Shown: piece by piece, positions 153 through 5,125 of the stretch
How the letters are laid out: each line of letters starts with the position of its first letter
How positions within the stretch are numbered: position 1 is the stretch's first letter
Origin: a virus
Taxonomy: Duplodnaviria > Heunggongvirae > Uroviricota > Caudoviricetes
DNA: 5,125 nucleotides
Virus record (IMG/VR): IMGVR_UViG_2713896784_000014
Direction: 5' to 3' (one strand)
The notes under the pieces: generated by a model
What the model was told of the DNA's origin: nothing
Seen by the model: only the letters and a program-made list of their open reading frames with translations
Databases searched by the model: none
Made by a program: the position numbers and the translations under genes

Positions 153-431
153 TCATCTGATACCGAACTTTACCCTCGAACATCCGGAAGAAATCCGGCA
201 TGAATATTGTTGGTCAANNNNNNNNNNNNNNNNNNNNNNNNNNNNNNNNNNNNNNNNNNNNNNNNNNGTATTACGAGCCAGGGCTTCCGGATGGCTGTCG
301 TCGTACAGTTCCGGGAACGTCATCCCCAGCTCGAAATAAGTCCGGGCTATTTCAGCTGCAGGAACTTTCTCACCGTCCGGATAGGCCCAGGCATTGATCG
401 CCATGCGGATGTGCTCATGTTTGATTTTCAT
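153..431 (-). CDS. YdaT-like protein (so-called toxin YdaT / CII-like family of Rac-type prophages); reading frame passes through a 50-N assembly gap so true length is uncertain
   Basis: ORF track 153..431 (-). N-terminus MKIKHEHIRMAINAWAYPDGEKVPAAEIARTYFELGMTFPELYDDSHPEALARN; the MKIKHEHI start is characteristic of YdaT-family proteins as I recall them. Start ATG 431-429 overlaps the cro-like stop TGA 430-428 (ATGA coupling). SD-like AAGGGGG lies 4 nt upstream. Stop TGA 155-153 sits inside the SD of the next gene. Confidence 0.6.
   Translation of the reverse strand: MKIKHEHIRMAINAWAYPDGEKVPAAEIARTYFELGMTFPELYDDSHPEALARNXXXXXXXXXXXXXXXXXXDQQYSCRISSGCSRVKFGIR
218..267. other. Assembly gap: run of 50 N
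   Basis: Positions 218-267 are all n in the sequence; the gap length may be arbitrary. Confidence 0.95.
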
Positions 432-655
432 GAATCCCCCTTTCCTTCGCCCTGAGTGGTATCCTTCTTTTTGTAAAGTTCTGGGTTCAAAGATAATTTC
501 CCCTTGGAGTATGCAGCAGCTTCCGCAGCCCTCCCCTTCGGAACTATTTCACCAGGACGCTTACGCCACATGTAAATAGCTTCGCGGGTTATCCCATAAA
601 AATCGGCAACCCTCTGAACAGAACCAAAAAACTGGACAAGTTCATCAACTCGCAT
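428..655 (-). CDS. Cro-like small HTH DNA-binding protein (YdaS/Cro family), 75 aa
   Basis: ORF track 428..667 (-) begins at a TTG; the internal ATG at 655-653 is preceded by a perfect GGAGG (664-660) with a 4-nt spacer, so 655 is the likely start. Protein MRVDELVQFFGSVQRVADFYGITREAIYMWRKRPGEIVPKGRAAEAAAYSKGKL... has a GxxxxVAxxxGITxxAIYxW helix-turn-helix pattern typical of Cro/YdaS-like proteins. It is divergent from the CI-like repressor. Confidence 0.8.
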   Translation of the reverse strand: MRVDELVQFFGSVQRVADFYGITREAIYMWRKRPGEIVPKGRAAEAAAYSKGKLSLNPELYKKKDTTQGEGKGDS

Positions 656-752
656 TTTACCTCCCAAATCTAAGTATTTTTAGATTACAAGATAATTTTT
701 TTTAGGTCAATGCAATCTAAAATAATTTATATTCAATTTGCAGGAGAAAATG
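656..752. promoter_or_regulatory. Divergent immunity-region control region (OR-like) with candidate PR-like promoter on the minus strand and PRM-like promoter on the plus strand
   Basis: 97-bp AT-rich spacer between divergent cro-like and cI-like starts. Minus-strand candidate promoter: -35 TTGACC (plus coords 710-705), 17-nt spacer, -10 TAATCT (687-682). Plus-strand candidate -10 TAAAAT (718-723) or TATATT (728-733). Contains the AATCTAA-N6-TTAGATT palindrome and an extra AATCTAA half-site at 714-720. Confidence 0.6.
667..686. promoter_or_regulatory. Operator-like inverted repeat AATCTAAGTATTTTTAGATT (7-bp arms, 6-bp spacer)
   Basis: Perfect 7-bp inverted arms read directly from the sequence; it overlaps the proposed -10 and start region of the cro-directed promoter. 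A 15/17 match recurs at 1475-1491. Confidence 0.55.
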
Positions 753-1397
753 ATGGAAAGCCTTGGCTTCAGGCTTAAGAGACTTAGAAAAGATAAGGGG
801 CTGACCCAAGTAGAACTGGGTAAGCTTTCAGGCGTGACTGGGGTTACTATAGGGTACTGGGAGAAAGATCTAAACGAACCAGGTAGCAAAGCTCTAAGTA
901 AGTTAGCCCAGGCATTAGGAACTACTGAGTCCTATCTCCTATATGGAGTATCGTCTCCTGAATTATCTTTTGTACAAAGTACCTCAGGCACCAAGATCCC
1001 CTACCTTTCGTGGGGTGAGGCGATTTCTTTCCTAATCTTAAAAGGAGAGAAAACAATGGGAAATGTCGATAGAATCACCACATTCTTTGATGTCGAGGAA
1101 GGTGATTTTGCCGTTTCAATGCCTGATGACACAATGCATAACCCATCAGGATCACCGAGTATCCCAGTTGGTGCTACTGTGATCCTAAGGCCAGGAGAAA
1201 GTTATAAAAATGGCAGCATCGTCGCTGTAATAGTTCCGGATCCGCTTAAAAATGAACCATCTATGACTATAAAGAAATTAGTTATTGATGGGAAGCTTGT
1301 GTATTTAAGCCCTCTCAATCCACGCTATCAGTCATCCTTACTTACACCAGAGTGTAAAATTGTTGCCGTAGCAAAAGGTGTACAGTTCAACTTATAA
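753..1397 (+). CDS. CI-like phage repressor: N-terminal XRE-family HTH plus C-terminal LexA/S24-type autopeptidase domain (214 aa from ATG 753)
   Basis: ORF track 738..1397 starts at TTG; the ATG ATG pair at 750-755 follows AGGAG (742-746), so the start is 753 (6-nt spacer) or 750. HTH segment LTQVELGKLSGVTGVTIGYWEKD. C-terminal segment KKLVIDGKLVYLSPLNPRY closely resembles the lambda CI C-terminus ([20 protein letters not shown], recalled from memory). Candidate catalytic Ser in AVSM (codon 1116-1118) and Lys-Lys in TIKKL (1272-1277). Stop TAA 1395-1397. Confidence 0.9.
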   Translation: MESLGFRLKRLRKDKGLTQVELGKLSGVTGVTIGYWEKDLNEPGSKALSKLAQALGTTESYLLYGVSSPELSFVQSTSGTKIPYLSWGEAISFLILKGEKTMGNVDRITTFFDVEEGDFAVSMPDDTMHNPSGSPSIPVGATVILRPGESYKNGSIVAVIVPDPLKNEPSMTIKKLVIDGKLVYLSPLNPRYQSSLLTPECKIVAVAKGVQFNL

Positions 1398-1418
1398 CCC
1401 GCCACGTCCTTTACTTGA

Positions 1419-1443
1419 GGTCGGCAATGCCGACCTTTTTTTT
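1419..1443 (+). terminator. Rho-independent terminator downstream of the repressor gene
   Basis: Perfect stem GGTCGGC (1419-1425), loop AAT, GCCGACC (1429-1435), followed by eight T (1436-1443), 22 nt after the stop codon. Confidence 0.75.
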
Positions 1444-1446
1444 AAA

Positions 1447-1492
1447 TTAATCTAGATTTACCTTGACTGAAAAACTAAATACTTTTAGATTT
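1447..1492 (+). promoter_or_regulatory. OL/PL-like region: candidate rightward promoter (-35 TTGACT 1463-1468, 17-nt spacer, -10 TAGATT 1486-1491) embedded in operator-like repeats
   Basis: 10-bp perfect palindrome AATCTAGATT at 1449-1458. 17-mer CTAAATACTTTTAGATT at 1475-1491 matches the OR 17-mer CTAAGTATTTTTAGATT (670-686) at 15 of 17 positions and overlaps the proposed -10. Confidence 0.5.
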
Positions 1493-1671
1493 ATTACATA
1501 CCACCCTACCTCGCCCCACAGAACGTCGGGCAATACCTCGAGTTACCCGGCAGTGGTCAGGGGTTAAGTAGCCAGCCCGAGGCGTATGAACATGACGGCG
1601 GGAACACTTTGTATAACAGCGCAGCAGGTTTTTAGTTCCGCGACCCGGCGTTAAGGGTAAATGAGGTCAAC

Positions 1672-1824
1672 ATGGATATGCTCAATCTTGGCAACAATGA
1701 ATCTCTGGTGTGCGGAGTATTCCCCAACCACGACGGCACGTTTACCGCGATGACGTATACCAGAAGTAAAACGTTTAAAACCGAAGCTGGCGCGCATCGC
1801 TGGTTAGCAAGAAACGCTAACTGA
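1672..1824 (+). CDS. Small ORF (50 aa) downstream of the PL-like promoter, hypothetical; possibly a YdaF-like Rac-type small protein
   Basis: Manual translation: ATG 1672 ... TGA 1822-1824 gives MDMLNLGNNESLVCGVFPNHDGTFTAMTYTRSKTFKTEAGAHRWLARNAN. SD GAGG at 1663-1666 with a 5-nt spacer. Absent from the ORF track, presumably because it is below the length cutoff. The family resemblance is a vague recollection and is not verified. Confidence 0.4.
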   Translation: MDMLNLGNNESLVCGVFPNHDGTFTAMTYTRSKTFKTEAGAHRWLARNAN

Positions 1825-2100
1825 TTAGCGCCAGTAAAAACAGGTTTCCACAGGTTAATTTACCCTGAAAAGTCAGGGCATAACACGAAAGCGCACGGCG
1901 AAGTTAGTCTCTCTGTATAGGTCGTCGTTAAATTTAATTCGACCGTGCGCTTCTGGTTGTGGCAATCCGCGAAATGGCGCGGCGGTAAGTATGGCGGGGT
2001 TATTCCTTCCCCCGTTGAGGACACCGGGTTGTCAGGTTGACCATACGCTTAAGTGACNCCCCAGCCACAACAACCTCTGTTATCACTTTTCTGGTGATTC

Positions 2101-2126
2101 GGCGGAAATGGATATCCGCCCTTTTT
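2101..2126 (+). terminator. Candidate intrinsic terminator on the plus strand
   Basis: Stem GGCGGA (2101-2106) and TCCGCC (2115-2120) with an 8-nt loop, followed by CTTTTTAAA (T-run 2122-2126). The long loop and only 6-bp stem make this moderate-confidence. Confidence 0.5.
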
Positions 2127-2304
2127 AAAGTGAATTTTGTGATGCGGTGAATGCGGCTATGCGCACGCGGAACAGTTAAAGCAGTAAGGCGGTCTTTTAC
2201 TGGCGTAACGAGCATCAACTAACCCGACGTTAATTGTTAACTGGTTAACGTCACCTGGAGGCACCAGGCACTGCATCACAAAATTCATTGTTGAGGACGC
2301 GATA

Positions 2305-2493
2305 ATGGAAACGTTATTACCAAACGTTAATACGTCTGAAGGTTGTTTTGATATTGGTGTTCTGCTCAGTAATAAAGCGTTTACTGAGGATGCCATTAAT
2401 ATGCGGAAATATGAGCCTTATCTGCTCAATGATAATTCCATTCTTTCCCGAATTGCCCTTATTAAACTTGGTATTTTCGGAGAACGTCAATGA
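2305..2493 (+). CDS. Hypothetical small early-left protein (62 aa)
   Basis: ORF track 2305..2493 (+). SD GAGGA at 2293-2297 with a 7-nt spacer to ATG 2305. Stop TGA 2491-2493 overlaps the next start (ATGA). Protein METLLPNVNTSEGCFDIGVLLSNKAFTEDAINMRKYEPYLLNDNSILSRIALIKLGIFGERQ; no family recognised. Confidence 0.55.
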   Translation: METLLPNVNTSEGCFDIGVLLSNKAFTEDAINMRKYEPYLLNDNSILSRIALIKLGIFGERQ

Positions 2494-2678
2494 CTTCAGC
2501 ATTTGCACTGGTGATGACGGTTTTTCTTATAACGGGTGAATCACAGAATGTTATTACCGGAATTTATGCCAGTAAAGAATCCTGCCTCCAGGCAAGAGAC
2601 GAGCAAAAAATTTCTGGTGAATGCCTACCGGTAAAAAAAGTATCGCTGTACCTGAATAACGAAACACCGGCTGGATAA
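2490..2678 (+). CDS. Hypothetical small protein (62 aa) with an N-terminal hydrophobic segment (signal peptide or single transmembrane helix)
   Basis: ORF track 2490..2678 (+). ATG 2490-2492 overlaps the upstream stop by 4 bp (translational coupling). Protein MTSAFALVMTVFLITGESQNVITGIYASKESCLQARDEQKISGECLPVKKVSLYLNNETPAG: residues 4-15 are hydrophobic, and the C-terminal part has two Cys. Confidence 0.55.
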   Translation: MTSAFALVMTVFLITGESQNVITGIYASKESCLQARDEQKISGECLPVKKVSLYLNNETPAG

Positions 2679-2773
2679 CCCGCCAGCCATATTAACGCCA
2701 TACCAACGGATTAAAAATGCCAGCAATGGCAGGGATTCGTTCACCCTGAAATCTGTAATGAGGTTAAAACACA

Positions 2774-5125
2774 ATGAGTAAAATCTTTATTTGCGCTGCT
2801 ATTCCTGACGAACAGGCCATAAAAGAAGATAGCGCTGTTGCGGTGGCCACTGCCATTGAAGCCGGTGATGAGCGTCGCGCACGCGCAAAATTTCACTGGC
2901 AATTTCTGGAGCAATTCCCGGCAGCTCAGGACTGCGCTTATAAATTTATTGTCTGCGAGGATAAACCCGGCATACCCCGCCCTGCCCTCGATTCCTGGGA
3001 TACCGAATATATGCAGGAAAACCGCTGGGATGAGGAGTCAGCTTCCTTTGTACCGGTCGAACCAGAATCCGATCCGATGAACGTCAATTTTGACAAGCTG
3101 TCCCCTGAAGTACAGAACGCAGTCCTGGTTAAATTCGACACATGCGAAAACATCACCGTTGATATGGTGATTAGCGCACAGGAATTACTACAGGAAGACA
3201 TGGCAACATTCGGCGGACATATCGTTGAAGCGTTGATGAAAATGCCAGAAGTTAACGCCATGTATCCTGAACTTAAACTGCATGCCATCGGGTGGGTTAA
3301 GCATAAATGTGAGCCTGGCGCTAAATGGCCTGAAATTCAGGCAGAGATGCGCATCTGGAAAAAACGTCGCGAAGGTGAACGCAAGGAAACCGGAAAATAC
3401 ACGTCTGTTGTTGATCTCGCCCGCGCCAGAGTCAACCAACAGAACCCTGAAAACGCTGCTGAAAAAACCGGGGCTGTCACTGTTGCCATTCGCCGCGAAT
3501 ACAAACAGACATGGAAAACACTCGACAATGAACTGGCCTGCGCCCTCTGGCCCGGTGATGTGGATGCAGGAAACATTGACGGTACCATCCATCGCTGGGC
3601 GACAAATGAGGTTATCGACAAGGATCGCGAAGACTGGAAGCGTATCTCAGCATCAATGCGCAAACAGCCCGAAGCACTTGGCTATGACCGTCAGACTATT
3701 TTTGGCCTTGTTCGCGAACGTCCGATCGATATTCACAAAGATCCCGTTGCACTGAACAAATATATCAGTGAATACCTGACGACAAAGGGCGTGTTTGAAC
3801 ATGAAGAAACAGACCAGAGCTCTACTGATGCTCTCCAGCCGTCAGCAGCACAAACTGCTCCAGTGGAGACGGCAGAATCCGATACTCAAAAAAATGAAAT
3901 CCTGGTGGAAGCTGAACCATCTGTAGAGCGTGAAGGACCATTTTATTTCGTCTTTACCGATAAGGGCGGGGAAAAATACGGCAGGGCAAACAAACTTTCT
4001 GGTCTGGACAAGGCGCTGGCTGCCGGCGGTACCGAAATCTCAAAAGAAGAATATTTTGCCCGAAAAAATGGCACATACACGGGCTTACCGCAAAATGTGG
4101 ATACCGCTGAAGATTCCGAACAATCAGAGCCGGTAAAAGTTACCGCTGACGAAGTAAACAAAATTATGCAGGCAGCCAATATCAGCCAGCCTGACGCCGA
4201 TAAATTGCTTGCTGCATCACGTGGTGAATTTGTTGAAGGGATTAGCGACCCGAATGATCCGAAATGGGTGAAAGGGATCCAGAGTCGCGACGCTGAGGAC
4301 CAGAATCAGCCCAACGTGAAACAAAATGAGCCAGAAGCGGAACAAAACAGCCCGGATACGCAACAAAACGGGCCAGAAGAACAACAACCAGAACCAGCAG
4401 TGCAACAGGAACTGGAAAAAGTTTGCACCGCATGCGGTCAGACCGGTGGCGGCAACTGTCCTGACTGTGGTGCGGTGATGGGGAACGCAACCTACCTGGA
4501 AACATTCGATGAAGAGAATCAGGCTGAAGCTCAGAAAAATGATCCGGAGGAAATGGAAGGCACTGAACATCTGCACAAGGAGAACACTGGCAGCGATCAG
4601 TATCACGCCAGCGATAATAAAACTGGCGAAACAGCAAATCCCTTAATTAAAGTGAACGGTCATCATGAAATCTCATCCACCAGCAGGTTGTGGCACCATC
4701 TGATGATTGACCTTGAAACAATGGGAAAAAATCCTGATGCGCCAATAAACTCTATAGCCGGTAAGTTTTTTGATCCGGCAACCGGAGAGATGGGGCCAGA
4801 ATTCAGCAAAACTATCGATCTGGAAACCGCAGGTGGGGTCATCGATCGGGACACCATTAAGTGGTGGCTGAAACAGTCACGCGAAGCACAATCCTCCATT
4901 CTGACCGATGAAATCACGTTGGATGATGCACTGCTGCAATTCCGGGAATTTATCGACGAAAACTCCGGTGAATTTTTTGTTCAGGTCTGGGGTAACGGTG
5001 CAACTTTCGACAACGTGATTTTACGCCGTTCATATGAACGGCAGGGGATCCCCTGCCCGTGGCGTTACACCAATGATCGCGATGTAAGAACGATGGTTGC
5101 TCTGGGACTGGTGATGGATTTCGAC
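2774..5125 (+). CDS. recE: RecE-like recombination exonuclease (exodeoxyribonuclease VIII-like), 784 codons with the 3' end beyond the window; C-terminal part carries DEDD/DnaQ-like 3'-5' exonuclease motifs
   Basis: Manual codon-by-codon reading from ATG 2774 (in-frame stop TAA at 2765-2767 just upstream) finds no stop codon through 5125. Missing from the ORF track, presumably because it has no stop in the window. Contains DKLLAASRGEFVEGISDPNDPKWVKGIQ, which I recall as RecE-like. C-terminal motifs MIDLETMG (Exo I, about 4703-4726) and WGNGATFDN (Exo II, about 4991-5014). Sits where exo/bet-type recombination genes lie in lambdoid early-left operons. The gene symbol is by family resemblance only. 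Confidence 0.85.
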   Translation, partial: MSKIFICAAIPDEQAIKEDSAVAVATAIEAGDERRARAKFHWQFLEQFPAAQDCAYKFIVCEDKPGIPRPALDSWDTEYMQENRWDEESASFVPVEPESDPMNVNFDKLSPEVQNAVLVKFDTCENITVDMVISAQELLQEDMATFGGHIVEALMKMPEVNAMYPELKLHAIGWVKHKCEPGAKWPEIQAEMRIWKKRREGERKETGKYTSVVDLARARVNQQNPENAAEKTGAVTVAIRREYKQTWKTLDNELACALWPGDVDAGNIDGTIHRWATNEVIDKDREDWKRISASMRKQPEALGYDRQTIFGLVRERPIDIHKDPVALNKYISEYLTTKGVFEHEETDQSSTDALQPSAAQTAPVETAESDTQKNEILVEAEPSVEREGPFYFVFTDKGGEKYGRANKLSGLDKALAAGGTEISKEEYFARKNGTYTGLPQNVDTAEDSEQSEPVKVTADEVNKIMQAANISQPDADKLLAASRGEFVEGISDPNDPKWVKGIQSRDAEDQNQPNVKQNEPEAEQNSPDTQQNGPEEQQPEPAVQQELEKVCTACGQTGGGNCPDCGAVMGNATYLETFDEENQAEAQKNDPEEMEGTEHLHKENTGSDQYHASDNKTGETANPLIKVNGHHEISSTSRLWHHLMIDLETMGKNPDAPINSIAGKFFDPATGEMGPEFSKTIDLETAGGVIDRDTIKWWLKQSREAQSSILTDEITLDDALLQFREFIDENSGEFFVQVWGNGATFDNVILRRSYERQGIPCPWRYTNDRDVRTMVALGLVMDFD

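Follow-up and report, generated by a model that had tools for sequence, protein, structure and literature searches.

A dicB-ydfD gene pair in the early-left operon of a lambdoid prophage closely matching that of Escherichia coli O157:H7

Here, we analyzed two small, overlapping open reading frames (ORFs) in a stretch of viral DNA of 5,125 nucleotides, referred to as the window throughout. The window carries, on its plus strand, a lambdoid prophage's early-left (pL-type) operon; its features are as follows:

428..667, minus strand: Cro/DicC-equivalent regulator (Pfam P22_Cro, 38.1 bits; RefSeq 'Cro/CI family transcriptional regulator')
738..1397, plus strand: cI/DicA-equivalent repressor with HTH_3 and Peptidase_S24 domains (Pfam; RefSeq 'LexA family protein')
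1417-1437: terminator of the repressor gene (terminator scan)
1463..1491, plus strand: candidate pL/dicBp-type promoter, TTGACT-17-TAGATT, just 3′ of the terminator (consensus scan only)
1672..1824, plus strand: ydfA-like gene (DUF1391; PF07151, 98.8 bits), first gene of the operon, in the slot of K-12 ydfA
1935..2087, plus strand: conserved untranslated block, 91% identical to K-12 and equivalent to the 5′ portion of the 190-nt long DicF precursor
2088..2126, plus strand: short DicF-like sRNA allele with an intrinsic-terminator hairpin (alignment to K-12 dicF, fold, terminator scan)
2133..2282, plus strand: dicF-dicB spacer and dicB 5′ UTR, with a conserved hairpin, CACCUGGAGGCACCAGGCAC, at 2252-2271
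2293..2297, plus strand: Shine-Dalgarno sequence GAGGA of dicB, 7 nt before the ATG (read from the sequence)
2305..2493, plus strand: dicB, ATG start, 62 aa; cell-division inhibition protein DicB, O157-type allele
2479..2482, plus strand: Shine-Dalgarno-like GGAG of ydfD, within the 3′ end of dicB, 7 nt before the ydfD ATG
2490..2678, plus strand: ydfD, ATG start, 62 aa; DUF1482/YdfD lysis-protein family, O157-type allele
2774..5125, plus strand: large exonuclease gene, equivalent of ydfE/exoO, open for 784 codons up to the window end, where it is cut; final gene of the operon

The order of these elements, namely, repressor/cro, ydfA, dicF, dicB, ydfD, and exonuclease, matches that of the dicBF operon of the Qin prophage of E. 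coli K-12 (dicC, dicA, ydfA, ydfB, ydfC, dicF, dicB, ydfD, ydfE, intQ), and the synteny extends to several phages. The ydfB and ydfC genes, which separate ydfA from dicF in K-12, have no counterpart at 1825-1935, and ydfA directly precedes the DicF precursor region. The position of the candidate promoter agrees with that of dicBp, which lies upstream of ydfA in K-12. By contrast, the repressors of the two operons differ: K-12 DicA consists of 135 aa, whereas the window repressor is a cI/LexA-like protein of 219 aa carrying a Peptidase_S24 domain, the presence of which suggests that the dicBF-type operon of the window might be subject to SOS-inducible control. At the nucleotide level, positions 268-5125 are 99.9% identical to a prophage of E. 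coli O157:H7 PV15-279. The window also contains a run of 50 Ns at 218-267, which takes the place of 258 bases present in the matching O157:H7 genome (L001 1812-2069) and represents a gap or mask of arbitrary length, as well as a single N at position 2058.

The last gene of the operon aligns to the ydfE pseudogene region of K-12 and matches PHROG 2082, annotated 'exonuclease'; its product carries a C-terminal Rv2179c-like 3′-5′ exoribonuclease domain (PF16473, 165 bits). A preliminary description of this locus, made from the sequence alone, had placed the two small ORFs between the immunity region and a recombination gene. The slot as such was assigned correctly, with the addition of the intervening DicF-like sRNA and its precursor. 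The 'recombination gene' label, by contrast, is unproven: for this gene, which is cut by the window end, the equivalog model of RecE/exodeoxyribonuclease VIII (NF007259) scores 260 bits, far below its cut-off of 1269, with a match limited to the middle region, and in PV15-279, no annealase gene follows the exonuclease, the place being taken by a DUF4224 gene and an integrase.

Upstream of dicB, the window encodes a DicF-like allele (2088-2126, plus strand; UUUCUGGUGAUUCGGCGGAAAUGGAUAUCCGCCCUUUUU), in which a hairpin at 2101-2120 is followed by a T run identified by the terminator scan (fold, -10.7 kcal/mol). Compared with K-12 DicF (RF00039), the allele shares the first 10 nt (UUUCUGGUGA), the base of the terminator, the T run, and both flanks, whereas it is shorter by approximately 17 internal nt, among them the 3′ region used by K-12 DicF for pairing with the ftsZ mRNA. 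The 5′ end, which in K-12 pairs with xylR/pykA, is kept. The Rfam DicF model yielded no match at E <= 0.1 in the whole window or at E <= 10 in 1900-2320, and the allele is unannotated in RefSeq. A match over the full length of this short allele is present in 442 of 5426 complete E. coli genomes. Four DicF orthologues have been reported in EHEC by published work. Given that the DicF terminator is located between the promoter and dicB, expression of the latter would depend on read-through.

The untranslated stretches on both sides of the DicF-like allele are more conserved than the genes. The identity of the 1935-2087 block to K-12 exceeds that of the coding genes, and the dicB 5′ UTR (2221-2304), with 96% identity to K-12, is likewise above the adjacent coding genes. 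We considered and rejected the possibility that 1935-2087 is a novel structured RNA, the block being accounted for by the published 190-nt long DicF precursor of K-12, which is generated by RNase III (PMC10448788). Over the dicB 5′ UTR and spacer, the Rfam STnc100 model scores 29.3 bits, below its gathering score of 47.

The first of the two small ORFs is dicB. Its product matches the Pfam DicB family (PF05358) over the entire length (residues 1-62 of 62; 121.4 bits, cut-off 27, E = 1.3e-35), scores above the cut-off of the NCBIfam DicB model NF049927 (112.2 versus 100 bits), and is annotated as dicB in RefSeq (WP_000449168.1, E. coli O157:H7 PV15-279). DicB of the cryptic prophage Qin (Kim) of K-12 (b1575), which is 61% identical overall, also consists of 62 aa and occupies the same slot between dicF and ydfD, with a 4-nt overlap. 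The K-12 protein binds MinC, and ZipA recruits the resulting complex to the septum; there, MinC depolymerizes the Z ring, resulting in filamentation. Via the same interaction with MinC, DicB blocks ManYZ, which makes the cells approximately 100-fold resistant to lambda and to other phages that depend on ManYZ (PMC6832061). Truncation and mutation of K-12 DicB have demonstrated a critical role for the N-terminal ~14 residues and for L5, but not for the identity of residue 2; the last 8 residues are dispensable, whereas C-terminal deletions of 12-20 residues weaken the activity (PMC4967827). Residues 1-15 of the window protein are the same as in K-12 save for K2E, and L5 is kept; within the critical ~14 residues, the window sequence (METLLPNVNTSEGCF) and its K-12 counterpart (MKTLLPNVNTSEGCF) differ at residue 2 only. 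By contrast, the last 27 residues are very divergent, codons 36-62 being essentially unrelated to those of K-12 (44% nucleotide identity, pN 0.52), and the net charge of the C-terminal part is +1 in the window versus +5 in K-12. A single-sequence AlphaFold2 model of the window protein (mean pLDDT 52.9, pTM 0.34) is too poor for fold comparison, and a PDB sequence search with it returned zero matches.

The second ORF is ydfD. Its product matches PF07358 (DUF1482) at 59.7 bits (cut-off 25, E = 2.6e-16, residues 4-61 of 62) and PHROG 1092 at 117 bits, is 47% identical to K-12 YdfD ('lysis protein', b1576), and is listed in RefSeq as a DUF1482 family protein (WP_000199485.1); a PDB sequence search produced chance matches only (E ~0.7-1). 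In common with YdfD of K-12 Qin, it has a hydrophobic N-terminus, two cysteines, an E-x-PAG motif, and a start that overlaps the dicB stop. The N-terminal residues 1-15 (MTSAFALVMTVFLIT) form the most hydrophobic 15-residue stretch of the protein (mean Kyte-Doolittle 2.04), and a comparison of 7 homologues shows no variation at C32, at C45, or in the terminal E-x-PAG motif. In K-12, expression of YdfD causes rapid lysis of actively dividing cells, which is prevented by co-expression of DicB or SulA (PMC8835842). YdfD has further been reported to bind and inhibit IspG, an enzyme of the MEP isoprenoid pathway, and the cells are rescued by ispG overexpression or HMBPP, although this mechanism comes from a single study without enzyme kinetics (PMC8835842). 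The YdfD results of Masuda et al. 2016 are taken as reported in PMC8835842 and PMC10448788; additional mechanistic work is covered in PMC10448788 and PMC5069750.

The window YdfD departs from the K-12 protein at its ends. The K-12 variants N1A (the residue after Met), L63A, and deltaC1 lose full killing, and neither of the residues reported to be needed for full lysis, the N after Met and the C-terminal L63, is present in the window protein, which starts with MT (T2, where K-12 has N2) and ends in PAG at G62, without residue 63, being 62 aa long versus 63 aa in K-12. The missing terminal residues bear on potency, not on family membership. The C-terminal domain is neutral in the window, whereas that of K-12 YdfD is acidic (charge -3), and the neutral domain does not fit the electrostatic model proposed for IspG inhibition.

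The dicB stop and the ydfD start share the ATGA at 2490-2493, and, besides this overlap, ydfD has a Shine-Dalgarno sequence of its own. Because the 4-nt overlap is kept in every locus read, translational coupling of dicB and ydfD is plausible. The Pfam matches, together with the dN/dS values of 0.16-0.5 described below, indicate that both ORFs are genuine and not due to chance. Antisense and alternative-frame ORFs across 2157-2774 yielded zero family matches and were rejected as coding on that ground.

Much of the preliminary description is borne out by these results. The two 62-aa ORFs and their ATGA overlap are present in the ORF table, the strong ribosome-binding site ascribed to the first ORF is the GAGGA at 2293-2297, and the hydrophobic segment ascribed to the second is the one at residues 1-15. 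The functional class expected of accessory genes in this lambdoid early-left slot was anticipated as well: the family of the first ORF inhibits cell division and excludes superinfecting phage (PMC6832061), and the second ORF belongs to the family of a host-killing lysis protein (PMC8835842). However, neither protein had been recognized, and both were put forward as the best candidates in the region for genes of undescribed function, that is, host-takeover or anti-defence genes unrelated to known proteins. The position in the early-left operon and the lack of hits in the PDB and in a search for defence systems with PADLOC, which matched neither DicB nor YdfD, are the sole support for this possibility, which is almost certainly incorrect given the full-length, above-threshold matches to the DicB and DUF1482/YdfD families, the existing RefSeq annotation, and the homology to the characterized K-12 proteins. 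The preliminary description had itself proposed profile searches and counted clear homology to a characterized protein against its own reading, and such homology is what the searches returned. Thus, the dicB-ydfD pair is already known, being both characterized and annotated in this very sequence, so that the result is mainly an annotation correction and the pair is not a new anti-defence candidate.

When complete E. coli genomes were searched by megablast with positions 2200-2780, many O157:H7 chromosomes matched at 100%, their annotations for the two genes being dicB and DUF1482 family protein; at an identity of at least 99%, the allele is found by megablast in 304 E. coli records, with 4-7 matching places per O157:H7 genome, so that EHEC genomes carry several dicB-ydfD modules. 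The overlap, in the form of ATGA or GTGA, is present in all 5 lineages compared (the window, K-12, mEp460, the PPompW/Stx2_14040 phage, and phage 689R5), and, of 7 additional loci belonging to Escherichia, Shigella, and one metagenome-assembled genome (MAG), 6 have an intact overlapping ydfD. Across both sets, the 4-nt overlap is seen at 12 of 12 loci and the pair is intact at 11 of them, in line with the conservation across related prophages that the preliminary description had proposed to look for. Furthermore, in all 20 phage records carrying DicB, YdfD directly abuts it (tblastn). In a scan of one genome per species, DicB is confined to Escherichia and Shigella, plus a single contig binned as Veillonella. 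This 22.9-kb contig (L010), from a MAG assigned to Veillonella parvula, carries a K-12-type dicB-ydfD pair and is most likely a mis-binned Escherichia prophage. The sole broken copy among the 12 loci belongs to Shigella flexneri SFBU0723 (L013, ~2683-2740), in which ydfD is cut to 18 codons and dicB is intact.

In every informative pairwise comparison, both genes show dN/dS values between 0.16 and 0.5 (Nei-Gojobori; dS 0.3-1.4), demonstrating that dicB and ydfD are under purifying selection. These values bear on the question of whether the two ORFs could be silent, decaying remnants of a cryptic prophage, devoid of current function. Signs of decay do exist in the surroundings, namely, an integrase truncated beside an IS in the matching genome, a frameshift in the adjacent exonuclease of the PPompW phages, and the truncated ydfD of the Shigella flexneri locus. 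However, both ORFs are intact in the window, dN/dS is well below 1 at dS of 0.3-1.4, the allele persists at high identity in the 304 E. coli records, and conservation extends to the ribosome-binding sites and the 5′ UTR. Thus, decay is a very improbable explanation.

The compared sequences fall into two allele classes, the K-12 type and the O157 type, the latter comprising the window together with the PPompW phages and a single E. albertii locus. Homologues of YdfD are also present, without detectable DicB, in phages of Klebsiella, Citrobacter, and Salmonella, indicating that the two proteins are not obligatorily linked. Conceivably, despite their common family membership, the O157-type alleles differ in function from those of K-12, with changed partner specificity or potency; for instance, the replaced C-terminal third of DicB might alter the effects related to ZipA or ManYZ, and YdfD might be less active or have a target different from IspG. 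Such divergence would be compatible with the clear separation of the two classes, the extent of change in DicB codons 36-62, the differences in charge between the classes, and the occurrence of YdfD without DicB, as well as with T2 and the lack of residue 63 in YdfD, given that changes at both sites lowered killing by the K-12 protein. Conversely, the critical N-terminus of DicB is conserved, the pair, its overlap, and the operon context are alike in both classes, the invariant motifs of the YdfD family are all in place, and dN/dS inside the O157-type class (0.16 and 0.27) is indicative of purifying selection, all of which makes functional divergence quite unlikely. In its more general form, namely, that the O157-type alleles constitute a functionally distinct variant of the module, with altered toxicity or target range, this possibility is still unlikely; if it were true, YdfD might be attenuated or IspG-independent and DicB might exclude other phages, and such a variant would be tuned for the SOS-inducible, multi-prophage background of EHEC. 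In any case, given the differences between the alleles, potency or specificity might have changed, with a small probability, whereas family membership is unaffected. In our literature search, no study testing the O157-type DicB or YdfD was found.

Considering these results together, it appears very likely that the two ORFs represent dicB and ydfD, that they form the distal small-protein part of a dicBF-type early-left operon belonging to a Qin-like lambdoid prophage from the O157:H7 lineage, and that they act much as their counterparts in K-12. The two proteins belong to the DicB and YdfD families, the locus is syntenic with Qin, and the overlapping pair is conserved under purifying selection; the functions of the window proteins, in turn, are presumed by analogy with the K-12 homologues. 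Under the preferred, K-12-like scenario, inactivation of the S24-domain repressor, probably by RecA-stimulated self-cleavage during the SOS response, would allow transcription from the pL-type promoter near 1463-1491, and transcripts reading through the DicF terminator would yield the dicB-ydfD mRNA. DicB would be translated from the strong GAGGA, and YdfD by coupling through the ATGA overlap and/or from its own GGAG. The N-terminal ~14 residues of DicB would then bind MinC and ZipA would bring the complex to the septum, so that the FtsZ ring is depolymerized and the cells filament. Through its interaction with MinC, DicB would also inactivate the inner-membrane channel ManYZ, leading to the exclusion of lambda-like phages. 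Finally, YdfD would lyse dividing cells, with IspG as the target according to one study, and this activity would be suppressed as long as division is blocked by DicB or SulA.

With respect to its presumed activity, DicB resembles Kil of phage lambda, which is also a small protein of the early-left (pL) operon that blocks FtsZ-ring assembly with the involvement of ZipA (PMC4967827). However, there is no sequence relationship between the two, the Pfam and PHROG matches of the first ORF being to DicB only, and the modes of action differ, Kil acting directly on FtsZ/ZipA and DicB via MinC. Similarly, YdfD is comparable to the single-gene lysis proteins of phiX174 (E, acting on MraY), Qbeta (A2, on MurA), and phage M (LysM, on MurJ), which are also small and lyse growing cells by blocking the supply of envelope precursors (PMC8835842). 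These proteins belong to other families and have other targets, and, unlike them, YdfD is encoded in the early operon of a temperate phage rather than by a dedicated lysis gene, with its effect masked by the co-expressed DicB.

One difference from the K-12 operon concerns regulation: the operon in the window is probably controlled by a cI-like S24 repressor and not by DicA. Given the S24 repressor in place of DicA, coupling to the SOS response may follow, such that SOS induction in a Shiga-toxin-producing host may be linked to all three activities, namely, inhibition of division, phage exclusion via ManYZ, and latent lysis.

As for the YdfD homologues that occur without detectable DicB, two of them occupy the same slot of the early operon, between the repressor and an exonuclease. 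In Klebsiella phage ST13-OXA48phi12.4 (L006 2143-2692), the ydfD homologue is preceded by two unrelated ORFs of 37 and 83 aa, and in Salmonella phage SW-37 (L007 2301-2698), by an abutting, unrelated ORF of 66 aa. Judging from their position, these small ORFs could encode analogous partners that mask the lysis protein.
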